Assembly: GCA_963630675.1 (NCBI GenBank)
Contig: CAVGNR010000001.1
Coordinates: 37,807 to 101,806, forward strand
Length of the DNA: 64,000 nucleotides
Reading direction: 5' to 3'
DNA from: Escherichia coli
GTDB taxonomy: Bacteria; Bacillota_I; Bacilli_A; RFN20; CAG-826
Part shown: positions 9,327 through 22,395 of the stretch, in pieces
Numbering within the stretch: the first letter of the stretch is position 1
Layout: each line of letters opens with the position of its first letter
Notes under the pieces: model-generated
What the model was told of the DNA's origin: nothing
What the model saw: only the letters and a program-made list of their open reading frames with translations
Database searches by the model: none
Made by a program: the position numbers and the translations under genes

Positions 9327-10386
9327 ATTTGTCTCCTTTCTTCGTAAAAAGAATCATTAAGAACAATGGCGTTCCAATCAAAGCGGTTATAGCACCCACC
9401 GGAAGAGAGGTTCCTTTTCCAATCAAGCGGGTAAAAATATCGCAGATTAGAAGAAGAGAAGAACCTGCTAAGAAAGAAGTCGGAAAAAGGAAACGATGAT
9501 CTCTTCCAATTAGTCTTTTCATAATGTGAGGGGCAATGATTCCCACAAAACCAATCATTCCGCAGAAGGAAACGCATAAGGCACCTAAAAGGGAAGCAAC
9601 GAATAAAGAGATAAAACGTAAAAGGGAGGTATGCACCCCTACACTTCTAGCAAAGCCATCTCCTGCATCAAGGGCGTTAAAGCGATATCCAAGCAAAGAG
9701 AAGGATAAAAGAGAGACAAATAAAACAATGCCCAATATTCCATTCTCTCCCATCGTGATTCTTTCTAAATTTCCAAAAGACCAGCCAACGATAGCAGAGA
9801 GAGCAACATCATCTGCAAAATATTGCAAAAGAGTTGTCAAAGCTTGGAAACAAGAGCCTAAAACAATTCCAACAAGAACAACAGTCGTAGGATGAAATTT
9901 ATGAAATGAGGATAAAAAGAGAACCAAAAGAATGCAAAGGAAAGAGAATAGGAAAGCAATCATCGATGTTTGAAAAGGGGAATCACTTGCAGAGACGAAA
10001 GAATTGCTACTCGTTCCATACAAACAAAGAATAATCACATTGGCCCCAAATACAGCCGCGTTCGAAACGCCTAGTGTCGCAGGTGAAGCCATAGGATTCT
10101 TTAATGAGGTTTGCATTAAAAGCCCAGAAAGAGAAAGCCCTCCACCAATGAGAAATGCGGCAAGATTCCTTGGGAGAATAATTCTTTGCATAATCCGGTT
10201 TGCCGCTACATCGCTTCTTCCGAATAAGCCAAAGAAACAACGCTCAATGGACATATTCGTTGGAGTTATAAAGAAAGAGAGGCAAATAAGAAAGATGGTA
10301 ATTCCAAGCAAAACAAAAAGGGTGATTATAGTTTTCTTTTTGCTTGTTTCAAATGGTGATGATATCTCTCTTTTTTCCATATCCAT
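9310..10386 (-). CDS. FecCD-family iron-chelate ABC permease
   Basis: 358 aa polytopic. C-terminal pattern GAITALIGTPLFLMIL is typical of FecCD/BtuC. Confidence 0.85.
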   Translation of the reverse strand: MDMEKREISSPFETSKKKTIITLFVLLGITIFLICLSFFITPTNMSIERCFFGLFGRSDVAANRIMQRIILPRNLAAFLIGGGLSLSGLLMQTSLKNPMASPATLGVSNAAVFGANVIILCLYGTSSNSFVSASDSPFQTSMIAFLFSFLCILLVLFLSSFHKFHPTTVVLVGIVLGSCFQALTTLLQYFADDVALSAIVGWSFGNLERITMGENGILGIVLFVSLLSFSLLGYRFNALDAGDGFARSVGVHTSLLRFISLFVASLLGALCVSFCGMIGFVGIIAPHIMKRLIGRDHRFLFPTSFLAGSSLLLICDIFTRLIGKGTSLPVGAITALIGTPLFLMILFTKKGDKYALSK

Positions 10387-10513
10387 TGTGCTAGTCTATC
10401 AATGTTTTCATCTTTTTTGAACGAAAATGAACAATTTAGAATGTTTTGTTCGTTTCATTAGTTATAATTAGAACACAATATTCGATATTTATTCGTATTC
10501 TGATGATAAAAAG

Positions 10514-11053
10514 ATGAACAAAAAAGAAGAAAAGACTAATGAATTGATCCTAGGTGCGTTAGAAAGATTATTAGAAAAGAAAAGCTATACGGATATTTCT
10601 GTCAGCGACATTATTTTAGAAAGCACGGTCTCTCGATCCACTTTCTATGCTCATTATAAAAAGAAAGACGATGTATTAAGAAATGTCTGCACGTCTATTT
10701 TTAACCACGCTTTTTCTTCCAATCACACCAAGGAAGGGAATATCACTCTCTACGATTATCGCGAAATGACCGCGCATATCTTCTATCATTTCAAAGAACA
10801 AGAGAAACTAATATCCGCCATCTTTGCTTCTGGCGCCTCCCATCTTTTCTATTCCACCTTAGGAAAGGAAGTTCATCACCTTATGAGAGTGGCAATGCCC
10901 TCTATAAAAATAAAACACCCATATATTCCTGATGATATATTAGAAAACTGCCTTTCTGGCGCTTTTGTGGATCTTTTAAAAGATTATGTGATTCATGAGC
11001 ATAAAGAAAGCGCCATCGAAATGACCACTTATTTTTACTCGCTCTTCGAATAA
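10514..11053 (+). CDS. TetR-family transcriptional regulator
   Basis: N-terminal HTH ISVSDIILESTVSRSTFYAHYKKKDDVL. Divergent from the ABC importer operon. Confidence 0.85.
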   Translation: MNKKEEKTNELILGALERLLEKKSYTDISVSDIILESTVSRSTFYAHYKKKDDVLRNVCTSIFNHAFSSNHTKEGNITLYDYREMTAHIFYHFKEQEKLISAIFASGASHLFYSTLGKEVHHLMRVAMPSIKIKHPYIPDDILENCLSGAFVDLLKDYVIHEHKESAIEMTTYFYSLFE

Positions 11054-11145
11054 GTCCTTTCAATTGATTGAAAAGCTTTGGCTATCTCTATATTTAGCTT
11101 GATCTAAAGGATCCTCACCCTTATTCTGTAAGAAGGATAAGAAAA

Positions 11146-13980
11146 ATGTTTGAAGCCTTCTTTTATACCAATCAAAGCGAACCGAATTTTCTTAAGAGAA
11201 TCATTGTTTGTTTAGACCGATGTGTTTCTTTTTCTTGGTCTGTATCCTTTATTAAGAAGGCAGGATTGATTCTTCTTTTGCCTCATTTAGAGAAGGCATT
11301 AGCTCGTGGTGTAAAAGGAAAAATTCTAACCTCAACCTATCAGAATTTCACCGATATTGCCTCTTTGGAAACCTTTTTAGAACTTCAAAGAAAGTATCCG
11401 AATTTTGAATGTCGCTTAGAGAATCATTCTTTTGATGACGATGGTTTCCATACGAAAGGTTATCTTTTTGAATATGAGGACTCTTCTTTCGAAAGTATCG
11501 TAGGTTCCTCTAATATCACGCGTTTTGCTTTGCTTAAAAACAAGGAATGGGATGTCGGGGTAACTTCCTCTAAGGAATACCAATTCGTTCGAAGAATCCT
11601 TGAGGAATTTAATTATCTTTGGAATAAAGTAAAACCTTTGACAAGAGAAAACGTCAAGGAATATGAGATGGCTCTATCTTATGCGATCGTTTCCTGGGAT
11701 ATGGATTATTCCTATGATAAGGAAAGCGAAACGTTCAAGCCGAATTTTATGCAAAGACAGGCTTTAAAAGAGCTTCAAAACACAAGGAATAGAAATATCA
11801 ATAAAGCAATGGTCATTGCGGCCACGGGCTCAGGAAAGACTTACTTAGCGGCTTTTGATGCGAAATTTTTTGGGGCAAAACGTTTACTATTTATCGTTCA
11901 TAAAGATACGATTCTTACACAGGCTTTAAACACTTTTAGCAAAGTGTTCGGACAAGAAAGAAGCTATGGCCTTTTTAATGGGGAATATTCGGAAATCGAC
12001 AAGGATTTCATCTTTGCTTCAAACCAGATGTTATCGAGACATTTGGAATTATTCTCCCCCGAAGAATTCGATTACATCATTATCGATGAAGTTCATCACG
12101 CGGCTGCCTCAACGTATCAAAAAATCATCGAGTATTTTAAGCCTTCGTTTTTACTCGGTTTAACCGCAACTCCTGACCGTATGGACGGGGAAGATGTCTA
12201 TCAAATGTTTGGCAATAACGTGCCTTTTGATTTGAGATTACGTGACGCGTTAGAGAATCATTTGATTGTTCCTTTTCATTATTACGGCATCAAAGATGAC
12301 TTGATTAGCTATGCTAGCGATGGAAGCGTGGAAGGAAACCGCCTTCTTGTTCAATCTTTATCTTCCTCTCTTCATTGCTCCTTTATTTCCGATGAAATCG
12401 AAAAACATCGTCCAGAAGGAAAGTTACGTTGCATCGGTTTCTGTCGGAATATCGAGCATGCGAAAGAAATGGCCATGCAGATGATGAATCTTGGCTATTC
12501 CACTGCCTATTTAACTGGTTCTTCCTCTTTAGGTGAAAGAATCCGTATCTTCCAAAGACTAGAAGATAAGAATGATCCTTTGGAACTTGTTTTTGCTGTG
12601 GATATCTTGAATGAAGGAATTGATGTTCCATCCATTAATATGGTCCTTTTCTTACGACCTACAGAATCCTCCACCATCTTTATTCAACAATTAGGAAGAG
12701 GATTAAGAAAATATGAGAACAAGCAATACCTCATTGTTTTGGATTTTATTGCCAATTCTTATTTGAGGTCTGTGCAGATTGCTTTAGCTTTAGGAAGTCT
12801 TTCCAAAAGTGGAGTTTCTGACAAATTAGCTCTCTCGAATATGGTAAGGGATAATTTCTCTTCTTTAGCAATTCCTCATTTAGAGATTCATTTTGAGGAA
12901 AAAGCTCAGGAAGAAATCTTACAATCCATTGAGAAAACGAATTTCAATTCCATTGCTTTCTTAAAAGCGGATTATCAGAATTTAAAGAGCTATTTGAAAT
13001 TAGGGCCAAATGAATACCCAAAACATGAAGTGTTCTTAGATCAAGAAACAGGCGTGGATATTTTGCATTTCACGAAGAAGCTCCCTTCTTATTACGATTT
13101 CTTAGAAAGAATGGGCGAAGATGTTCCATTCTTCTCTAAAGAAGAAAAAGAAGTTATCGAAACAATCTATGAATATCTTCCTCTCGTTCATCCAGAGGAA
13201 TACCTCATTATCAAAGAACTATTAAACGGGGAGAAAACGGAAGAAGAGCTTTATTCTTCTTTAAAAGATGTGGATCATTTTAAGAGAGATACGTTCTTAT
13301 ATGCCTTAAAGGTATTGCAAGATGAGTTTTATTACACAAGACCTTCCTATCACCACACATTAGTGAAAAAAGAAGGAGATACTTACTCTTTGAATTTTGA
13401 GATGAGCAAGGATTCTTTCAAAGATTGGCTTATTTCATTACTGGATTATGGCTTAACTCGTTACCAAATTGAGTTCTATAACGTTGAAGGAAGATTAAAA
13501 CGTTACCACCCTTATACGTCTTTATCCTCTCTTTTAGCCTTAAATAGTGAGAACCTTTTCCGGATGATGGGTGTTTTCAATGTCAATAAAGAACGAGTGA
13601 TTTATATCGATTTGAAGAAAGATGAACAAGTCTTGTCTCATTTGAAATATAAGGACCGTTTCTTATCCCCATCTCTCTTACAATGGGAATCTCAGACAGG
13701 GACAAGAATGAATAATTCAAAGGGTATTTCCTTATTAAAGAACCCCTATTCCTATATCTTTGTGAGAAAAGCCAAAAGAGAGGATGGAGCTGAAATGCCT
13801 TTCTATTATTTAGGAAGAGGGTGTTTGAAGAATCCAAGAATGTCGGATAATCCTAAAGAAACATTGTTATTTGACATTGAATTAGAAGAAAAGGTCCCCC
13901 TTATGTATTATGATGATTTTGGAATAGAAAGAAATGAAGAAGAGAATCCGGGTCGTGTGTGCCTTAATCAAGAAGAATGA
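11146..13980 (+). CDS. PLD(HKD)-nuclease / SF2 DEAD-DEAH helicase / DUF3427-type C-terminal domain fusion protein
   Basis: 944 aa. HKD motif GFHTKGYLFEYED. Helicase motifs are AATGSGKT (I), IIIDEVHHAAAS (II), GLTATP (III) and QQLGRGLR (VI). A roughly 300-aa C-terminal region matches the architecture usually annotated DUF3427. TGA stop at 13978-13980. Confidence 0.85.
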   Translation: MFEAFFYTNQSEPNFLKRIIVCLDRCVSFSWSVSFIKKAGLILLLPHLEKALARGVKGKILTSTYQNFTDIASLETFLELQRKYPNFECRLENHSFDDDGFHTKGYLFEYEDSSFESIVGSSNITRFALLKNKEWDVGVTSSKEYQFVRRILEEFNYLWNKVKPLTRENVKEYEMALSYAIVSWDMDYSYDKESETFKPNFMQRQALKELQNTRNRNINKAMVIAATGSGKTYLAAFDAKFFGAKRLLFIVHKDTILTQALNTFSKVFGQERSYGLFNGEYSEIDKDFIFASNQMLSRHLELFSPEEFDYIIIDEVHHAAASTYQKIIEYFKPSFLLGLTATPDRMDGEDVYQMFGNNVPFDLRLRDALENHLIVPFHYYGIKDDLISYASDGSVEGNRLLVQSLSSSLHCSFISDEIEKHRPEGKLRCIGFCRNIEHAKEMAMQMMNLGYSTAYLTGSSSLGERIRIFQRLEDKNDPLELVFAVDILNEGIDVPSINMVLFLRPTESSTIFIQQLGRGLRKYENKQYLIVLDFIANSYLRSVQIALALGSLSKSGVSDKLALSNMVRDNFSSLAIPHLEIHFEEKAQEEILQSIEKTNFNSIAFLKADYQNLKSYLKLGPNEYPKHEVFLDQETGVDILHFTKKLPSYYDFLERMGEDVPFFSKEEKEVIETIYEYLPLVHPEEYLIIKELLNGEKTEEELYSSLKDVDHFKRDTFLYALKVLQDEFYYTRPSYHHTLVKKEGDTYSLNFEMSKDSFKDWLISLLDYGLTRYQIEFYNVEGRLKRYHPYTSLSSLLALNSENLFRMMGVFNVNKERVIYIDLKKDEQVLSHLKYKDRFLSPSLLQWESQTGTRMNNSKGISLLKNPYSYIFVRKAKREDGAEMPFYYLGRGCLKNPRMSDNPKETLLFDIELEEKVPLMYYDDFGIERNEEENPGRVCLNQEE

Positions 13981-14329
13981 TCGTATCTTTGTGGCACAAA
14001 GAGATTATGGAGAATTCAAAGGATTATATGAATTTCCGGGCGGAAAGATCGAAGAAGGTGAAACTCCTGAAGAAGCGATCATCCGTGAAATCAAAGAGGA
14101 ACTTGAAACCACTATAAAAGTAGAGAAGTTTCTGCTCAATGAAGTCTATGAGTATCCAGGCTTTATTTTGGATATGGATGCCTTTTTAGTCACGCCCATC
14201 AAAGGGAACCTAACGATAGAAAAAGGAATCCATTCCGATGAGAAATGGATTAATAAAAAAGAAGGAAAATCCCTAGAATGGTGCCCAGCCGATAAAGAAA
14301 TCTTCTTTAAGATTCAGGATTTGATGTAG
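13934..14329 (+). CDS. NUDIX hydrolase, MutT/NudG-like (deoxy)nucleoside triphosphate pyrophosphohydrolase
   Basis: 131 aa. Nudix box GGKIEEGETPEEAIIREIKEELE. The start overlaps the helicase 3' end by 47 nt in another frame. Confidence 0.9.
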   Translation: MKKRIRVVCALIKKNDRIFVAQRDYGEFKGLYEFPGGKIEEGETPEEAIIREIKEELETTIKVEKFLLNEVYEYPGFILDMDAFLVTPIKGNLTIEKGIHSDEKWINKKEGKSLEWCPADKEIFFKIQDLM

Positions 14330-15355
14330 TTATTTCTTATTTTCTACGCTAGAAATTAAGCGATCAAAATCGCTTTCATATAAACGGTCTTGAATAAGAC
14401 GATATTGTTCAAATTCACTTTCGGCAAAGGCTTTGGCGATAGCCATCGTTACTTTTCCTTTGTCTTTTAAGACATCTTCTTCGTTAAATTGTAAGAACGC
14501 ATCAAGTTTATTCGCCCAATCTTCCATGGTCATAGGAATATGTTTTCTTGCTTGTCTAGTCGCATAGTCAAGATACATAGTCACTATTTCATTTAGTTCT
14601 TGAAGTTCGTTCTTAGACAAATAGTTTTTAGCAATAGAAACGTCCGCTTTCACGATTTTGCCATAAGGGGGATTCTTCCAAGAAGTGAGGCCCATATGTT
14701 CTTTCGTATGATCCGCACGGGCCATAATCATTTCGGCAGCTGTGCTTTGATGAACGGCATAATGCATTTTGTTTTGGACGGTCGCAAAGAAATCTTTGGT
14801 AATCTTGCTATCCGGAGAATAATCCACAGCAGTCGCATAAATGTCAGTTATCTTTTGATAGAAACGACGTTCACTGGCACGGATTTCTTGGATTTCAGAA
14901 AGAAGATGGTCAAAATAATCTTCATCAAAGATTTGCCCATTAATTAATCTATCTTTATCTAAAACATAGCCTTGCTTGGTAAAGGTGTCGAGAACGTTTG
15001 TGGCCCATTGACGGAATTCCATTGCTCTTTGGGAATTGATACGATACCCAACGGCAATGATGGCAGCTAAAGAGTAGTATTTATATTGGTATTTTTTGCC
15101 ATTGTTGGCAACTTGTTCCATTTTGGCACAAGTTGAACCTTCATTTAATTCTCCGCTCTCAAAGATATTTCTAAGATGCTTAACCACCGCGCTTCTTCCA
15201 ACGTCAAAAAGCTGGGCTATAGCCTTTTGGGAAAGCCAAACATCGTTGTTATAAACTCTAACTTCAATTCCGTTTTGATGAGCGTCTTTTGTGAAAACTA
15301 AAAAATCAACTGTACTATTACGGATTTGCAGTTTGTTTTCTTTGCTGTTTTCCAT
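14330..15355 (-). CDS. RhuM-family protein
   Basis: IRNSTVDFLVFT...VWLSQKAIAQLFDVGRSAVVKHLRNIFESGEL...GYRINSQRAMEFRQWAT matches the Virulence_RhuM pattern. The ORF track starts at TTG 15361; the first ATG is at 15355. Confidence 0.85.
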   Translation of the reverse strand: MENSKENKLQIRNSTVDFLVFTKDAHQNGIEVRVYNNDVWLSQKAIAQLFDVGRSAVVKHLRNIFESGELNEGSTCAKMEQVANNGKKYQYKYYSLAAIIAVGYRINSQRAMEFRQWATNVLDTFTKQGYVLDKDRLINGQIFDEDYFDHLLSEIQEIRASERRFYQKITDIYATAVDYSPDSKITKDFFATVQNKMHYAVHQSTAAEMIMARADHTKEHMGLTSWKNPPYGKIVKADVSIAKNYLSKNELQELNEIVTMYLDYATRQARKHIPMTMEDWANKLDAFLQFNEEDVLKDKGKVTMAIAKAFAESEFEQYRLIQDRLYESDFDRLISSVENKK

Positions 15356-15406
15356 ACTCAATTATTATAACGAATTTTAAGGATATCTTTAGGCTTAAAA
15401 GCTTCT

Positions 15407-17221
15407 TTAATGGGGGTCTAGAGAGAAATAGTCGTCAAAAGATATGGAATTTAGATATTCCTCAACGTTAACATATTCGATATCTCCTTCTTTCGTTGTT
15501 TCTCCTCGATAAAGAACGGCCTTTCTTTGAATGGGAGGAAATCTCTTTTCAAAGAGAGAACGTTTCTCTGGGTCAATAAGATTCTTAGTTTGTTCTTTAT
15601 TTCTCTCTTTGCTATGTTTAATTTCAAAGATTTCAGAATGGTCAGAATAAATGATAGCCATATCAAATTCACCTGAATGGAAGATGAATTTACCTACCTG
15701 AAGAGAAGGGTTTGCCAAAGAAGTTTCTAAAAGAATGATGTCTTCTAACATCCTTCCTTTGATTTCATTAAGGATTCTTTGAATCACATAGTCCTTAGTT
15801 TGAGGTTCTATCATTTGAAAGGTTTTATCTTTCCTTAAGTTAAGGATTAGTTCTTTGGCTTGAGAATAACGAAGGCCTGCAATGGTAACGATATTTCTTT
15901 CCCTAGAGGAATTCTCAGAGAAAACATCTATCTTACGAATGATTTCTAACTCTTGGAGATAGTCCTCAATCTCTTTGCGATGAATTTCTTGGATGGGAAT
16001 GGTTCTTTCTTCTTTGTTAAGAATGCCTAAGGATAGTTTAAGAGCATCCTCTACTTTATTTCGATCGATCTTGTCTAATATGTGATATTTCTCTTTGCTT
16101 TCTTTTCGAAGATTATTACAAGAGATACCTAAATCATGATAGATAAAGTCTTGATTTAGCACCTCTAAGGCAAAACGATGGTTAGAATCCTCTACTACAC
16201 GATTGATGATGTTTTTAAGTTCTTTTCTTTCATAAAGTTCATATAGGTCACGGAAATAAGAACCATCTTTATAGTAGGCTAAAGAATGTTGGATATTATC
16301 CGCGATAGCTGCGTCTACATAAGGGCTAGCTTTGCTTAAAGAATTCCTTTGAGAATAGATTTTCCCTGATAGGGACATACTTCCAGCATATTCGATATAG
16401 GCGTCTATATCGTTAATGCCTAACACATTTGAGAAATCTTGAAAAGGAATGAAAGAGGTATGCAAGAAATAGGAACGGTCATAAAGAGAATCTTCTTTGG
16501 AGAAGATAAAGCCTAGGGAGTCCGTTCCAGAAAGGACAACTCTCATATTCTCTGAGGCAAAAAGATTTGCAATAAAAGCAGATCCGTCTATGAAGTCTTT
16601 CATATCTGTGACCTCATCCAGGAAGATATAACGATAGCCTTTCTCTTTGAGATCTTTTAATAGTTCATATAAATCTCCCATCTCGGAGAACGAATTAAGT
16701 TCTATGAAAACGGATTTCTGGAAATCCCCCTCTTTCATATTTAATAGAGCTTGCATGATTAAGGTAGTTTTGCCTGTTCTTCTTAGGCCATAAAGAATTA
16801 ATACTCTTTTCTTATCTAGAGTGTTTGTATCATAAAGAAAACGTTCCAATCCCTTGAAAGCGTAACGATGTTTGTAACCCCTATAATCTTCAATTAGTCC
16901 TTTTAGATTCTTACCAACAAAATAGGAAATTCCATGTTTCTTATTCGAAGAAACTCTTCTTTTTGAGGAATTCATTTCTAAAGCGTAAGTAGAAATAGAG
17001 GAAAGAATGTTCTCTAAGTTTTTTCGAATTTCTATTTCTTTTGAAACCAACGATATTTCTTCATTTGGCACATATTTGCTATATTTTTTGCCATTTTCAT
17101 TCCATTGACGATAGATTCTATCTTTTCCATTTATTTTCTTTTTGGATAGATATCCCTTAGGAAGAGAATCTATTTGTTCTTGGATATGATCATATTGAAT
17201 TTCTAAGTCTGTCTTACTCAT
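15407..17221 (-). CDS. AAA-superfamily ATPase (AAA_14 + DUF4143-like C-terminal PD-(D/E)xK-like module)
   Basis: 604 aa. Walker A GLRRTGKTT, Walker B YIFLDEV. C-terminal GEFDMAIIY...EIFEIKHS is a nuclease-like D...E.K. A roughly 130-aa N-terminal extension contains KKINGKDRIYRQWNENGKKYSKYV. Confidence 0.8.
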   Translation of the reverse strand: MSKTDLEIQYDHIQEQIDSLPKGYLSKKKINGKDRIYRQWNENGKKYSKYVPNEEISLVSKEIEIRKNLENILSSISTYALEMNSSKRRVSSNKKHGISYFVGKNLKGLIEDYRGYKHRYAFKGLERFLYDTNTLDKKRVLILYGLRRTGKTTLIMQALLNMKEGDFQKSVFIELNSFSEMGDLYELLKDLKEKGYRYIFLDEVTDMKDFIDGSAFIANLFASENMRVVLSGTDSLGFIFSKEDSLYDRSYFLHTSFIPFQDFSNVLGINDIDAYIEYAGSMSLSGKIYSQRNSLSKASPYVDAAIADNIQHSLAYYKDGSYFRDLYELYERKELKNIINRVVEDSNHRFALEVLNQDFIYHDLGISCNNLRKESKEKYHILDKIDRNKVEDALKLSLGILNKEERTIPIQEIHRKEIEDYLQELEIIRKIDVFSENSSRERNIVTIAGLRYSQAKELILNLRKDKTFQMIEPQTKDYVIQRILNEIKGRMLEDIILLETSLANPSLQVGKFIFHSGEFDMAIIYSDHSEIFEIKHSKERNKEQTKNLIDPEKRSLFEKRFPPIQRKAVLYRGETTKEGDIEYVNVEEYLNSISFDDYFSLDPH

Positions 17222-17414
17222 CTTAAGATAAGTATAAATTAAGATAATTGAAAGAAAAAGGGGTTATAAAATTTACGATTTCAGTCTGTGCAAAAAATGC
17301 ATAAACTCATTTCCGCGGTCTATCGGTTTATGTGTCCCAAACTTTTCCTAATTCTATTTAATCAAAAGAATCAAATTGAAATAACCCCTCATAGCATTTT
17401 TCGGAGGTTATGAA

Positions 17415-17447
17415 AATAAAAAGAAAAGCACGCCACAAGGACGTGCT
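17415..17447 (-). terminator. Rho-independent terminator after the large surface-protein gene
   Basis: Minus strand reads AGCACG-loop-CGTGCT followed by TTTTCTTTTTATTTT. Confidence 0.7.
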
Positions 17448-17472
17448 AATCAGATGAATTTTAGAATTGGAG

Positions 17473-20400
17473 TTAAGCCAGATAAGTAATCACAATTTTA
17501 GTGATACGTACTTGGTTGGTATTCGCTTTCAGAGACACTTTTTGTTGTCCTTCGGCATTTTCCCAAATTCCGGTTTTATTAGAATATATGTAATGACTTG
17601 CTACATCTGTATCAACAAAACAACCAGGACCATATTTATCAGCACCACTGTTGGTAGAAGTGATTTCGACTTTTAAAATAGTCTTTCCTTCTTCGGCCGA
17701 AATCGTGAGTTTTTGACCTTTGAAGACGCTGATTTTTCCGCTATCGATAGTTCCGGTATCAATTTGGAAAGTGAAACCGCTGACAGTTTGAATTGTTTTT
17801 TTGCCAGAAACAGCACTAAAGTCTGTTGGTACAAACGTTGCAGTCTTTTGAGTTGGAGTTGAACTCTTCGCGACGAATGTAACCTTAACGGCATTCGCCA
17901 AGTCAGCATCGAATTTTTTGCTTGTGGTAATATCAGTAACTTTTCCAGTTTTGTTTGTATATTCAATCTTGCTTAGTTCATAACCAGAATTGGCAACAGG
18001 ATTTACAGTAATGGTTTCACCAAAAGTGATTCCTTCGGTTTTGCTGAGGGTAGCACTTCCCATTGTTGAATCATTAACAGTGACGGTTGCAGTTAAATTA
18101 GAAATCTTTTCACCTTTTGGCAAAGCATAAGAATCAACAATTTCTTTTGTACCGTTGAAATTTTTGAATATGCCAAAGACGGTGACCATTTTTCCGACAT
18201 TGTCCTCGGAAAGGGCGGTTCCGATCACTTTTGGAGTTTTATCAGTAGTTTTCTTAAGCGAGAAAACACCAGCATCGCTCATTAAAATGGTGGCTTCTGA
18301 ATAGGATCCATAAAGCGTTATTGTTTCGCCAGTTGTTGGATCTTCAAGATATCCATTGCCGTAAGCGGCTTTCGTAATTTCTTTTAAAATGCCCGTAACA
18401 AGATATAAATTCTTATCATCATTCTCAGTTAACGCATTCATCTCAGCGATGGTTTTTGTGAGAACGTTTGGAGTTACAACGTTAACGCCTGTGCCATTAT
18501 CCATAGAATCATAGGCATTAACAAAGGTTAAGGCATCAAAGGTGATGGTTGTGTTATGTGTTCCGTCGACTCTAGAAACGACTTTGTTTCCAGCTGGAGC
18601 AACAAATTTACAAGAGTTGGTGAAAGTGAAGTTGACGTCTTCGTTATAAGCGCCTGCAACATTATCGCCAATGACGGCTGCAGCAGATGGAACTTCGTTT
18701 CCTGTTTTCCAAACGCCAGTAAGATAAGAGTCATTCTTGGCTTTTGTAGCTTCGGTTAACCAAGCACCAGTGGTTTCGAAGGTTGTAGCATCGGCTTTCC
18801 AAGTGCCAGTACGAGCGATAAGAGCTTGTCTATCAGCTTTGAGAGTGGAGTTTTTGAAGGTGACGTTGATGCCTTCGACATTTCCTAAGAAAGCAGCATT
18901 GTCCTTATCATCGGTGGTGACGGTAAGATGGGAATTATCCATAAGGATCTTGGCATTCTTTCCTTCGAGGTTATTTGTGCCAATACCGAAGACGGCTTTA
19001 AGATCCAAAGTGGAATTCTTGATTTCTAAGTCCGTTGAAGAAGAGCAATAGATACCTGTGTAGGTTAAAGTCGTGTTGGTAAGTGTAACGCCATCTAAAG
19101 TGAAGGATAAAGCATCAGAAGCATCGATGATGTTTCCGTTTGCAACTGCTCCCGTGACATTGATGGTTCCGTTTTTAACGGTGATATTTTGAACGTGTGT
19201 GCCACCTTCTCCCGCTAAGGCATAGATAGCAACAGCCGAGGTGACCGTTAAGGTCTTTCCACCTAAATCGATGATAGTATCTTTCTTAGCAAGAGGTATG
19301 GTATCGATTGAGGAGTCGGCAGTTAAAGTAACCTTAGCAGTATCTAATCCTTTGATGGTTGTCTTTAAGGATTCAGAGATAGAGGCAACGCGGTAAGTGT
19401 CAGAGAAGGTTGCTTCGATAGAAAGGCCTGCTTCAGTCATATTGGTGACATAGCTATTGCCAGTGACTTCCACTTCAGCTCCGTTTACTTTGAAGGATTC
19501 GAGATGATAGCCTTCGGCTGGGGAGATAGTGAAAGTAACGCTTTCTCCAACAGCAGCTTTTTCTTTATTGGCAGTAACCGTACCGTTTGTGCATGGAGCA
19601 ATGGTGACTGTTTTAGCAAGTTCTTTCCAAGTTGCCGTGATAGTAAGCCCACCTTCGACCATTTCCACAACAGCATATCCATCTTCAACAAGAACTTCTT
19701 CACCGTTGACAAGGAGTTTTCCTAATTCATATCCAGCATCTGGATAGACTTCAATTTCAACTTCGTCTCCAATAGGGGCACTGGTTGTTGGTGTTGTATA
19801 AATGGTTCCGCCTTTTGTGTCAGTAACCGTAATAGGTGCACTCTTTTTAGCAAAGATGCCAGAAACGATTAATCCAGTTTTAACCATCTTAACGACAACA
19901 GTTCCGCTTTCTCCGACAGAGACAGCATTGCCATTTACATATAAAGCGGATAAATGATAGTTCGTATCTGGAGTGACGGTTAAGGTGACGTCTTCTCCGG
20001 TGATCGCTTCTAATTTATCTGCGGTGACTGTTCCACCAGCATTTTTATTGATGGTAACGGCATGTTTGATTGCTTTGAAGGTCGCATCAACGGTTAAACC
20101 TTCTTTGACCATAGTGGCTTCGTAAGTGTTGTTTGTGACTTCTTTTGCTTCACCGTTGACTTTGAAAGTATCCAGTTCAAAGTCATCATTTGGCGTGATG
20201 GTGAAAGTAACTTTATCACCAACGATTGCCGTTGTTTTATCGGCAACGACAGTGCCATTTTCCGAAGAATGGATGGTAACGTCATGAGTGTTTGCTTCCA
20301 CTGCAATTGTGACAGTTAAGCCGTTTTCCACCATTGTAGCGGTAGCTTTGTTGCCAGTGATAGTGACATCGTTTCCGTTCACTTTGAAGGAAGAAACGTG

Positions 20401-20487
20401 ATAGTCTTCATCGGTTGTAACCGTGAAAGTAATGGTTTCACCCACTTCCGCTTGCGTTTTGTCAGCTTCAACGTGAGCGTGTTCCAC
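17473..20487 (-). CDS. Large surface protein body: five ~75-aa InlB-B-repeat-like domains, beta-helix-like region, OB-like C-terminal region. Lacks its own signal peptide (see 20488..20688).
   Basis: 1004-aa ORF beginning at GTG immediately after an in-frame TAA. Repeats follow the pattern VTI..GTV.ADK....G..VT.TVTPD..Y....F.VNG. The central segment NSTLDLKAVFGIGTNN...NSHLTVTT is typical of parallel beta-helix proteins. Confidence 0.8.
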   Translation of the reverse strand: MEHAHVEADKTQAEVGETITFTVTTDEDYHVSSFKVNGNDVTITGNKATATMVENGLTVTIAVEANTHDVTIHSSENGTVVADKTTAIVGDKVTFTITPNDDFELDTFKVNGEAKEVTNNTYEATMVKEGLTVDATFKAIKHAVTINKNAGGTVTADKLEAITGEDVTLTVTPDTNYHLSALYVNGNAVSVGESGTVVVKMVKTGLIVSGIFAKKSAPITVTDTKGGTIYTTPTTSAPIGDEVEIEVYPDAGYELGKLLVNGEEVLVEDGYAVVEMVEGGLTITATWKELAKTVTIAPCTNGTVTANKEKAAVGESVTFTISPAEGYHLESFKVNGAEVEVTGNSYVTNMTEAGLSIEATFSDTYRVASISESLKTTIKGLDTAKVTLTADSSIDTIPLAKKDTIIDLGGKTLTVTSAVAIYALAGEGGTHVQNITVKNGTINVTGAVANGNIIDASDALSFTLDGVTLTNTTLTYTGIYCSSSTDLEIKNSTLDLKAVFGIGTNNLEGKNAKILMDNSHLTVTTDDKDNAAFLGNVEGINVTFKNSTLKADRQALIARTGTWKADATTFETTGAWLTEATKAKNDSYLTGVWKTGNEVPSAAAVIGDNVAGAYNEDVNFTFTNSCKFVAPAGNKVVSRVDGTHNTTITFDALTFVNAYDSMDNGTGVNVVTPNVLTKTIAEMNALTENDDKNLYLVTGILKEITKAAYGNGYLEDPTTGETITLYGSYSEATILMSDAGVFSLKKTTDKTPKVIGTALSEDNVGKMVTVFGIFKNFNGTKEIVDSYALPKGEKISNLTATVTVNDSTMGSATLSKTEGITFGETITVNPVANSGYELSKIEYTNKTGKVTDITTSKKFDADLANAVKVTFVAKSSTPTQKTATFVPTDFSAVSGKKTIQTVSGFTFQIDTGTIDSGKISVFKGQKLTISAEEGKTILKVEITSTNSGADKYGPGCFVDTDVASHYIYSNKTGIWENAEGQQKVSLKANTNQVRITKIVITYLA

Positions 20488-20688
20488 TTACGTAATGGTT
20501 ACGTTGTAGGTCTTTTTAATTTCTTCCGAAGAGACGCTGTTCTTAGAAGAAGTGTCTCCACCTTGTGTAGATGAGGCGACTTGGCTTGCTTCGCTTGACT
20601 TTTCAGAAGATGATGGTTCGTTTGGATTACATCCGCTGAGAGCGAGGAGAGCAGCTGGTAAGAGAACGAGTAGTTTCTTTTTGTTCAT
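20488..20688 (-). CDS. Signal-peptide/lipobox N-terminal fragment of the same surface lipoprotein, cut off by an in-frame TAA
   Basis: MNKKKLLVLLPAALLALSGC (lipobox) followed by a Ser-rich linker. It ends ...KTYNVTIT-TAA. The next codon, GTG, continues the first repeat in the same frame. Confidence 0.7.
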   Translation of the reverse strand: MNKKKLLVLLPAALLALSGCNPNEPSSSEKSSEASQVASSTQGGDTSSKNSVSSEEIKKTYNVTIT

Positions 20689-20862
20689 ATTTATCTCCCA
20701 TATATAAAAGATTAAGAAAAAAGTTTTCGTTTACCGATAAGCCTGTTTCTCTTTCTTTTGAACATGGCATAATTTTAATAAAGATATCTTTATAAATCTA
20801 GTCTAGAGGAATAGGAAAGCCTATAAATTCCAAAAAGAAACCTATTTTTTCAAGGCTTTTTC

Positions 20863-20931
20863 AAGAATGAAGTAAGAGTGAAGTATTACTTCATTGTTAC
20901 TTCACACTTCACTTCATTTTGAGTGAAGTTA
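20863..20931. repeat. 69-nt direct repeat, downstream copy (overlaps the stop codon of the AlbA_2 gene)
   Basis: aagaATGAAGTaagaGTGAAGTattACTTCATtgttACTTCACACTTCACttcattttgaGTGAAGTta; 66/69 identical to 22427..22495. Confidence 0.9.
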
Positions 20932-22395
20932 TTTTGGGAAGACGGTATTGTGATTGGAATAATATTTGGCCGGATAAGTCGAATTGCTCATCAAAAGTAG
21001 GTTTTTCTCCATTAAAGGTTGGAGGATTTCTTTTCGGAAATAATTAGAAGGTTTTATGCCAAGCGTTTCAGCGATTTCTAAAGCGGTATGTGGAGCATTC
21101 CAACAATAAGAAAGTATTTCTAATTGTTTAGTTGTTTCTTCACCGTTTATCGTATAAACGGCTGGTTTTTCGTTGTTTGAGACGAGGCCCGAAGGATGAG
21201 TAAGGTCTGGAAGAGTTAAAGAGAAAAAGGAATCGTCAGAATCCGCAAAGGGTGCGAATTTCGGTCCGTATTCTTTGTATTCTTGCTCAATTTTGTCAAA
21301 GCCACTGCCTTTATGATCCATGATTTTGCAAAGAGAAAAGACTGCGCAAATAAGTTCATTTCTTCGAAGTGGAGGAATTTGAGCTAGATTGGTTTCTTTT
21401 TGCAACCATTTATGGGTAGGCAAAGAACCTGGCGAAATAATTTCCAAGCGGTCTTTAAAAACATTGATTTCAATTTGTCCACCTTGAATAAAATAGTTGC
21501 GATGTCCGATGGCATTAGCAATTCCTTCTGAGAGGGAACGTTTTGGAAAAGAGAAGATATCCTTTCTTCCGTTAGGCGTTTTTTCAAAACCGTTGATAGA
21601 ACGAGATTCAATAAAGCCGATGGCTTCTTTATATTCTTCAATTAAGTTTCCTTGTATTTTTTTGCTTGCAAGGAAAAGATTGTCACCTTTGCTGATACCA
21701 GGGAAGGCAGAACATTCGATTAACGTTCTGGAATCATTGCAGTTATCGCGAAAAAGAAGGGACCCTCTTTTTAATTTTTTATCAAGTGTGAAAAAACCAA
21801 TGTTCAATAAATCTTTTTCCGTCAATTCTTTCCCGTTATTCTGCTCCTTGTAGAAAGAGAACAGCGTTTGAAAATCTTCTTTATGGAAAAATTCATCTGT
21901 TTCCATAATGTCATAGGAGACAGAATCGCTAGATAGCACTAGGTTGCGTATTTCTTCACCTGTTGCAAAGCTTGTTTTTCCAAAGTGTCTTACATAAATA
22001 ACACTCGTCCCATTAATGTGAAGAGAAACCGGTGGAAATTTGCTTTTTTCTACATGTATCCCTAGAACATAGCGAGTTGGCGAAACTTCTGGGACCGGTA
22101 TTTTTTCGATTGTATAGCGAATAGGAGGCTCGATGTGTAAAGGGATTAATCTCTGAACCATTAAGGCGATTTTATCTGCGCATTCGTGGGATAAGGCAAC
22201 GATTTTATGGGTTTTGTTTTCTACACCAACATATAAAACTCCGCCAAAAGTATTTGCAAAAGCAGCAATTTCTTTTAGCCACCCATTCTCTACTCTTTGT
22301 TTTGTTTCATTATCAAAGCCTTCATTGATAATTCCTTTAAATTCCACTTCATAGTCTTCTAGATTTGTATTGGGGACTAGTTCTTCAAAAAGCAT
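20929..22395 (-). CDS. Schlafen/AlbA_2 domain + HATPase_c_4-like + C-terminal wHTH protein (COG2865-type putative regulator)
   Basis: N-terminus YEVEFKG...LKEIAAFANTFGGVLYVGVE fits AlbA_2. Middle segment EGIANAIGHRNYFIQGGQIEINVFKDRLEIISPGSLP fits the RecG-C/HATPase_c_4 pattern. C-terminal HTALEIAETLGIKPSNYFRKEILQPLMEKNLL. Confidence 0.85.
   Translation of the reverse strand: MLFEELVPNTNLEDYEVEFKGIINEGFDNETKQRVENGWLKEIAAFANTFGGVLYVGVENKTHKIVALSHECADKIALMVQRLIPLHIEPPIRYTIEKIPVPEVSPTRYVLGIHVEKSKFPPVSLHINGTSVIYVRHFGKTSFATGEEIRNLVLSSDSVSYDIMETDEFFHKEDFQTLFSFYKEQNNGKELTEKDLLNIGFFTLDKKLKRGSLLFRDNCNDSRTLIECSAFPGISKGDNLFLASKKIQGNLIEEYKEAIGFIESRSINGFEKTPNGRKDIFSFPKRSLSEGIANAIGHRNYFIQGGQIEINVFKDRLEIISPGSLPTHKWLQKETNLAQIPPLRRNELICAVFSLCKIMDHKGSGFDKIEQEYKEYGPKFAPFADSDDSFFSLTLPDLTHPSGLVSNNEKPAVYTINGEETTKQLEILSYCWNAPHTALEIAETLGIKPSNYFRKEILQPLMEKNLLLMSNSTYPAKYYSNHNTVFPK

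Follow-up and report, generated by a model that had tools for sequence, protein, structure and literature searches.

SauUSI, the chief obstacle to moving DNA into Staphylococcus aureus (SAUSA300_2431; PDB 7CLG), combines a phospholipase D-type (PLD) nuclease with a superfamily 2 (SF2) DExH motor, a coupler and an SRA-like reader, and the bases that it senses are exactly 5-methylcytosine (5mC) and 5-hydroxymethylcytosine (5hmC). Relatives of this Type IV restriction enzyme are spread across gut bacteria, and its conserved partner, a NUDIX gene, has been noted since 2011 without an explanation. Here, we consider one such pair of genes, at positions 11146–14329 of a 64,000-nucleotide (nt) stretch of DNA (hereinafter the window; contig CAVGNR010000001.1 of assembly GCA_963630675.1, positions 37,807 to 101,806) from an uncultured gut Bacillota with a small genome. 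The locus is an ordinary further copy of the two-gene module published in 2011 and, taken by itself, calls for no more than the routine annotation of a known module. Together with its relatives, however, it points to a possible function for the NUDIX partner, which might keep 5-substituted dCTP from being built into the host chromosome.

In S. aureus, the NUDIX gene (SAUSA300_2432; Sae2385 in strain Newman) lies directly beside sauUSI, on its upstream side. Xu 2011 described this conserved MutT/NUDIX neighbor in at least 60 such pairs and guessed at a role in the breakdown of pyrophosphate (PMC3141236), and Bell et al. 2020 drew a NUDIX gene beside SauUSI in Streptococcus. Monk 2012 deleted the S. 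aureus nudix gene and obtained a viable strain that still restricts DNA and has no transformation phenotype (PMC3312211); thus, the NUDIX protein is dispensable for cleavage itself. The latest mechanistic preprint on SauUSI, from 2025, according to which the enzyme needs no more than one hemimethylated site, does not mention the NUDIX gene. On the side of the hydrolases, the closest precedent is the Bacteroides fragilis protein of PDB 3GWY (Q5LBB1, Q5LBB1_BACFN), a 5-substituted (d)CTP pyrophosphohydrolase with kcat/Km values of 4–7e6 M-1 s-1 on 5-Me-CTP, 5-Me-dCTP and 5-hm-dCTP and far lower values on canonical NTPs (PMC5158307). Its substrates are the triphosphates of the same two bases sensed by SauUSI. 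In the openly searchable literature (subscription papers being outside its scope), we found neither a link between the 3GWY activity and SauUSI nor a functional test of the NUDIX partner, and a search for the source organism of another structure, PDB 5X1X, returned nothing relevant.

A full-length SauUSI homologue

The 944-aa product of the first gene is a full-length homologue of SauUSI and, as judged from its sequence, a predicted 5mC/5hmC-dependent, ATP-driven Type IV restriction enzyme. The SauUSI structure matches it collinearly (residues 9–901 against 34–924; HMMER E=8e-122), as does the PADLOC mREase_IV profile PDLC03658 (E=1.4e-121, profile positions 34–914 of 953). The original prediction had read this protein as a nuclease-helicase of a restriction-like or anti-phage kind, while missing that it is a recognizable SauUSI-family enzyme; the part it had described as a large uncharacterised C-terminal domain is, in fact, the coupler and SRA-like 5mC reader that have been structurally characterized in 7CLG.

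All three functional regions of SauUSI can be traced in the window enzyme. The N-terminal PLD (HxK) nuclease domain (11281..11622, plus strand; aa 46–159; Pfam PLDc_2 E=5.9e-9) carries H102 and K104, which are invariant in our restriction-enzyme alignment (A1) and are placed by the 7CLG alignment opposite H119 and K121, the catalytic pair of SauUSI, H119A being a published nuclease-dead mutant (PMC7913695). The SF2 DExH translocase motor (11734..12708, plus strand) comprises the Pfam domains ResIII (aa 197–345, E=1.1e-37) and Helicase_C (aa 425–521, E=1.2e-13) and has its motifs intact, namely Walker A GSGKT, DEVH and motif VI QQLGRGLR, with K231, D314, E315, H317 and Q514–R521 invariant in A1. 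The C-terminal DUF3427 region (13171..13920, plus strand; aa 676–925; Pfam E=2.2e-31) corresponds in the 7CLG alignment to the SauUSI coupler and SRA-like target-recognition domain. Six residues form the 5mC pocket of SauUSI (M829, Y831, F841, I842, D858 and W868; PMC7913695), and five of them are kept or conservatively replaced here (M808, Y820, I821, D837 and W847). Among these, D837 is the base-specific Asp and W847 the stacking Trp, and both are again invariant in A1. The sixth position is V810, which stands where SauUSI has the methyl-contacting Y831; hence, the specificity may depart from that of SauUSI, either in the sequence context or in the preferred modification. The window enzyme shares with SauUSI its domain order, its catalytic His/Lys pair, its ATPase motifs and most of its pocket, and is probably active. 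As a measure of its distance from SauUSI, relatives with comparable E-values are ~33% identical.

A distinct NUDIX subfamily

The second gene codes for a 131-aa NUDIX protein, to which the PADLOC model of candidate PDC-S07 aligns over the full length (E=6e-42). Its Nudix box (14042..14110, plus strand) reads G37...E43...R51 E52...E55 E56 in the translation, and the catalytic E43, R51, E52, E55 and E56 are invariant in our NUDIX alignment (A2). The protein shares the NUDIX fold and the catalytic glutamates with Escherichia coli MutT and NudG (Orf135; PDB 2RRK), the best reported substrate of the latter being 5-methyl-dCTP. However, it scores below the curated cut-offs of both equivalog models, with 78.5 bits against a cut-off of 156 for NudG (NCBIfam NF007834) and 75.6 bits against 97.9 for MutT (TIGR00586), which marks it as a member of a distinct subfamily. 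Moreover, the genes for NudG and MutT stand alone in a housekeeping role and, unlike the window gene, have no linkage to a restriction enzyme.

The best solved homologue, and the top PDB match, is 3GWY (E=3.7e-21). The identity between the two proteins is moderate. They share the traits of the subfamily, a (P/E)AD motif that is conserved close to the C-terminus and a Nudix box without its terminal Gly: the consensus Gly is E58 in the window protein and Asp in 3GWY. The matches of SauUSI-linked NUDIX proteins to 3GWY are stronger still, at E=5e-42 for the copy of Segatella copri and 3e-28 for that of a Paludibacteraceae bin, which places the characterized enzyme inside the SauUSI-linked subfamily. 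By analogy, the best-supported activity for the window NUDIX is that of a 5-methyl-/5-hydroxymethyl-dCTP pyrophosphohydrolase, which would yield the monophosphate.

Organization of the gene pair

Both genes lie on the plus strand and begin with ATG, the restriction gene at 11146–13980 and the NUDIX gene at 13934–14329. They overlap by 47 nt (13934..13980), with the NUDIX gene in the +1 frame and the overlap ending at the restriction-gene stop codon. The start of the restriction gene is preceded at a distance of 8 nt by a Shine-Dalgarno-like AAGAAGGA (11130..11137, plus strand), and a purine-rich GGAATAGAAAGAA stretch is found on the same strand just 5′ of the NUDIX ATG. The restriction gene of the three nearest species ends at codon 936/937, just past the point at which the NUDIX homology starts. 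A scan of 10300–15500 for promoters and terminators yielded sites no commoner than in shuffled sequence, and the operon boundaries are thus drawn from gene spacing only.

The original prediction had been accurate on these basic points. Its coordinates for both open reading frames (ORFs) and for the overlap are reproduced exactly in the ORF list, and every motif it had quoted is found in the translations (GFHTKGYLFEYED, ATGSGKT, DEVHH, TATP and QQLGRGLR in the large protein; the Nudix box GGKIEEGETPEEAIIREIKEELE and, at the N-terminus, RVVCALIKKNDRIFVAQR in the small one). The NUDIX start that it favored is backed by seven homologues, in which the initial Met is invariant and the N-terminus M-KK-I-VV is conserved. 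Likewise, the large protein has Pfam matches to PLDc_2, ResIII, Helicase_C and DUF3427, and the small one to NUDIX, and PADLOC, which it had named as a check, returns mREase_IV for the former and PDC-S07 for the latter.

Recurrence of the pair across genomes

We surveyed the pair at three phylogenetic depths. In the first set, consisting of the window genome and 40 relatives, a full-length SauUSI homologue is present in only nine of the 40 relatives, at 33–71% identity, which points to a patchy, accessory distribution. A NUDIX gene adjoins the SauUSI gene in all ten bearing genomes (the window's own and the nine relatives). NUDIX scores in this set are bimodal, with subfamily members at 115 bits or more and the other NUDIX genes of the same genomes at 61 bits or less; within the genus, the high-scoring copies have a patchy distribution that follows the restriction gene.

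The second set is a sample of 399 genomes that were scored, all from the same phylum; a full-length SauUSI-family gene is present in 69 of them. With adjacency taken as a spacing of at most 106 nt, 53 of these genomes have an adjacent NUDIX gene, 12 lack one and four are cut by contig ends (i.e., 53/65 of the assessable genomes); the 53 include one case in which 668 nt separate the NUDIX gene from a restriction-gene match that ends early (query residues 8–734). By chance, two given genes would be neighbors in ~1/700 genomes of such size; hence, the adjacency is not a chance effect. The NUDIX gene is downstream on the same strand in 31 cases, convergent in 12 and upstream in 10. Viewed in reverse, 53 of the 82 subfamily NUDIX matches in this sample lie beside a SauUSI-family gene, so that what PADLOC lists as PDC-S07, a single-gene candidate with no mechanism attached, has a SauUSI-family partner in the window and in ~65% of the sampled cases.

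The third set extends across phyla. Among its 80 loci, 55 of the 72 assessable ones have an adjacent NUDIX gene (25 downstream, 14 convergent and 16 upstream), and the adjacent loci come from Bacillota, Bacteroidota, Fusobacteriota, Spirochaetota and one Methanobrevibacter bin; the sampled loci of Campylobacterota and Coriobacteriaceae show no adjacent NUDIX. We also found a natural fusion, in which a single 1100-aa ORF (locus L141:1259–4561, minus strand) unites PLDc_2, ResIII, Helicase_C, DUF3427 and NUDIX, an assembly indel being possible in this case. Directly upstream of the fusion is a gene with a NERD domain, and a sister species (G261) has two separate overlapping genes. The pairing in 10/10, 53/65 and 55/72 cases, the fusion and the SauUSI-type identity of the large protein together bear out the two-gene defense module that the original prediction had proposed, and the helicase-NUDIX adjacency, which it had suggested tracing in other genomes, is widespread in them.

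Several divergent members of the family were encountered in the course of this survey. A 1465-aa SauUSI-family protein (L142:2106–6503, minus strand) has an N-terminal extension of ~530 aa with no Pfam match, and the subfamily NUDIX of that genome is on another contig. Two families with small genomes that use TGA as a sense codon (f11 and f17; 3–5 in-frame TGA per match) code for PLD and helicase proteins of 600–830 aa that match only query residues ~5–650 and are, therefore, devoid of the DUF3427 reader; these genomes have no subfamily NUDIX match.

Other associations of the NUDIX subfamily

Beyond SauUSI, subfamily NUDIX genes keep varied company. A second recurrent partner is a NOV_C/DUF3883 domain protein resembling PADLOC PD-T4-1 and PDC-S36, which is fused to NUDIX in one locus (L119:3847–5247, plus strand) and is encoded by the adjoining gene in another (L124:2238–3557, minus strand). 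In a locus with no SauUSI (L115), the NUDIX gene comes after an AAA_5 protein (PADLOC PDC-M26) and a 560-aa gene; elsewhere it is convergent with a protein showing a weak, sub-threshold match to the McrB N-domain (L117) or adjoins a DinG-like helicase that carries a PD-(D/E)XK domain (L121). Further fusions join NUDIX to HAD (L118), to YunG (L130) and to a thioredoxin-like domain, the last of these directly downstream of a SauUSI-family gene (L143), and one copy has NDK as its neighbor (L116). Lower-scoring subfamily members are found in plain housekeeping neighborhoods.

Conversely, we scanned ten neighbors of NUDIX-less SauUSI loci for alternative pyrophosphatases. One is a MazG-like pyrophosphatase 12 nt from the SauUSI gene in Arcobacteraceae (L085:3802–4149, minus strand) and one is a HAD_2 phosphatase directly downstream of it in Fusobacterium (L083:3981–4634, plus strand), the rest being unrelated. 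These two, each a single case, may be functional substitutes for NUDIX, and the HAD, MazG and NDK neighbors and fusions as a whole fit a theme of nucleotide clean-up.

Proposed function of the NUDIX partner

The explanation that we consider best, with a probability of about 60%, is that the locus is a Type IV restriction cassette in which the NUDIX protein prevents 5-substituted dCTP from entering the pool used for replication. Going by the homology to SauUSI, the SRA-like C-terminal domain would flip out 5-methyl- or 5-hydroxymethyl-cytosine; the flipped base would switch on the SF2 ATPase, and the ensuing DNA translocation would lead to cutting by the N-terminal PLD nuclease. The NUDIX protein, presumably co-transcribed with the restriction gene, would hydrolyze 5-methyl-dCTP and 5-hydroxymethyl-dCTP to the monophosphate, as has been shown for 3GWY. 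The need for such an activity might arise from 5m-dCMP, which could come from the recycling of shredded methylated invader DNA or from the salvage of methylated nucleosides. If re-phosphorylated, it would be incorporated as 5mC at random in the host chromosome, exposing it to self-cutting by the restriction enzyme. With one hemimethylated site sufficing for the enzyme, as the 2025 preprint on SauUSI states, stray incorporation of this kind would be dangerous. For salvage, the host encodes a deoxynucleoside kinase. The same predicted activity would, in addition, deprive phages of 5hm-dCTP or 5m-dCTP where these serve as the building blocks of their DNA, a role compatible with self-protection, and the viable, restricting S. 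aureus knockout fits both.

Our proposal shares its core with the original prediction, which had the NUDIX enzyme sanitize or deplete a pool of modified dNTPs while the nuclease-helicase attacks modified invading DNA. That idea is not new, yet it is the best-supported reading in view of the substrates of 3GWY, the SauUSI identity and the pairing, with the functional link itself still a matter of inference.

A number of observations weigh against it. The activity of the window NUDIX is inferred from its relative 3GWY, its sub-cut-off scores to the NudG and MutT models do not favor it, and the conversion of 5m-dCMP to 5m-dCTP by bacterial kinases in vivo is an assumed step. The S. aureus nudix knockout has no reported phenotype. 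In terms of distribution, ~18–24% of the SauUSI-family genes lack an adjacent NUDIX, some of these in genomes without any, and ~35% of the subfamily NUDIX genes are away from SauUSI, some in housekeeping contexts. The distances of the restriction enzymes and of the NUDIX proteins are weakly correlated (Mantel r=0.33, reached in 0/2000 permutations; Spearman 0.10), which leaves strict deep-time co-inheritance as one unit unsupported; rather, the two genes seem to move together in the short term and to be reshuffled in the long term. Finally, the NUDIX gene is adjacent in 12/18 of the SauUSI genomes with C5-methyltransferases as compared to 41/47 of those without (a crude test). An internal source of 5mC, therefore, does not predict the NUDIX partner, which argues against it as the driver, and we rejected it as a predictor given that adjacency is not commoner in genomes with these enzymes.

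Somewhat more tentatively, since it falls short of even odds in our estimation, the proposal might be generalized: the NUDIX subfamily could act as a safety catch for modification-dependent restriction at large, clearing the 5-methyl- and 5-hydroxymethyl-dCTP that arise from the recycling of restricted DNA, not only for SauUSI but also for other systems that would sense modified cytosine, namely those of its AAA_5/PDC-M26 and NOV_C partners, with MazG-like or HAD proteins replacing it in some lineages. Were the NUDIX protein to clear methylated dCTP in this manner, it would represent a new principle, a metabolic self-protection that makes modification-dependent restriction safe, and would account for PADLOC flagging the NUDIX family as a defense candidate.

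Among the alternatives, the one that survives best, though we regard it as unlikely, is that the NUDIX protein is a direct anti-phage effector instead of a self-protection factor, draining the 5hm-dCTP/5m-dCTP pool on which phages with modified cytosine replicate, as a second layer behind the nuclease. That 3GWY hydrolyzes 5-hm-dCTP as well as 5-Me-dCTP speaks for such a role, as do the listing of the family by PADLOC as the stand-alone defense candidate PDC-S07, the roughly one-third of its members that occur without SauUSI, sometimes beside other defense-like genes, and the independence of NUDIX adjacency from host C5-methyltransferases. However, the literature searched holds no phage phenotype, and phage kinases can phosphorylate the product, 5hm-dCMP, anew, which may make depletion a leaky futile cycle. 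An anti-phage role alone would also leave the fusion to the restriction enzyme and the very tight operon coupling unexplained.

A considerably poorer account makes the NUDIX protein an ordinary MutT-like antimutator, an 8-oxo-dGTPase or general sanitizer that hitch-hikes or is co-expressed with the restriction gene and has no specific link to its function. It can draw on the sub-threshold matches to the models of both MutT and NudG as well as to many MutT structures, on the housekeeping neighborhoods of some family members, and on the deletion of Monk 2012 with its lack of a transformation phenotype. Yet the genome has two other NUDIX genes, the patchy distribution of the subfamily follows the restriction gene within one genus, and the adjacency holds in each of three gene orders, across several phyla and in a fused form; furthermore, the closest characterized relative strongly favors 5-substituted cytosine nucleotides. 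Lastly, the idea that the NUDIX protein serves the energy chemistry or regulation of the enzyme, by breaking down pyrophosphate (as Xu 2011 suggested in PMC3141236) or by hydrolyzing dATP/ATP to tune the motor, would suit the action in cis offered by the natural fusion but is highly improbable, given that by established enzymology SF2 motors release ADP and phosphate rather than pyrophosphate, NUDIX enzymes generate pyrophosphate instead of degrading it, the S. aureus knockout restricts normally and purified SauUSI functions alone in vitro.

C5-methyltransferases in SauUSI-bearing genomes

Across the 399 genomes, C5-methyltransferases are rarer in those with full-length SauUSI (18/69) than in those without (218/330), kinship being uncorrected in this comparison; when only the families with SauUSI are considered, the shares are 26% with the enzyme and 51% without. 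This scarcity fits an incompatibility between SauUSI and C5-methylation, the genomes being related to each other.

The window host differs from S. aureus in that it has, in the same genome but outside the window, a HpaII-like restriction-modification system that would generate 5mC (L120; G000 contig C2, 1–11100). It consists of a HpaII-like restriction gene with two flanking C5-cytosine methyltransferases and a Vsr endonuclease, and adjoins a serine recombinase and a Mob_Pre relaxase. The SauUSI of S. aureus cleaves M.HpaII-modified DNA, and there is thus an apparent conflict between this system and the window enzyme. Possible explanations are a differing specificity of the latter (V810 for Y831), the silence of one of the two systems or a mis-binned contig.

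Genomic surroundings of the locus

Upstream of the pair is a gene for a TetR-family regulator (10514..11053, plus strand; Pfam TetR_N), which adjoins a divergent FecCD/ABC/binding-protein operon. One of the relatives (G022) keeps the FecCD–TetR arrangement with no restriction or NUDIX match in the ~1.5 kb from TetR to the contig end, and its own, more divergent pair lies on another contig. From this synteny, the two genes look like an inserted cassette with TetR outside it, and we rejected TetR as a part of the module, FecCD–TetR being kept in G022 without the pair in the available flank; the regulator goes with the divergent FecCD/ABC operon instead.

On the other side, a convergent RhuM-family gene (14330..15361, minus strand) abuts the NUDIX stop codon; it matches Pfam Virulence_RhuM (E=3e-105) and the PADLOC candidate PDC-S05 (E=1.4e-147). 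Its membership in the module is not supported, as the three nearest species have no such gene next to their pair. A RhuM-like gene also abuts a NUDIX gene that has no SauUSI partner in another genome (G038; L114:6392–7636, minus strand), where the NUDIX gene sits between RmuC and RhuM. Beyond the RhuM gene of the window, the minus strand at 15407–22395 codes for a 604-aa AAA_14 protein with a weak PDC-S01 match, a 1004-aa protein with InlB B-repeat (Flg_new_2) domains and a Schlafen/AlbA_2 protein with HATPase_c_4. This suggests that the genes downstream of the pair form a small cluster resembling a defense island.

The closest public relative of the locus (L034; CAVGNL010000143.1), at 70% identity, is filed under 'Prevotella sp. 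CAG:755'. Its own neighbors by similarity are labeled Mollicutes, Bacilli or Candidatus Enteromonas; the Prevotella name appears to be an old labeling error carried over.

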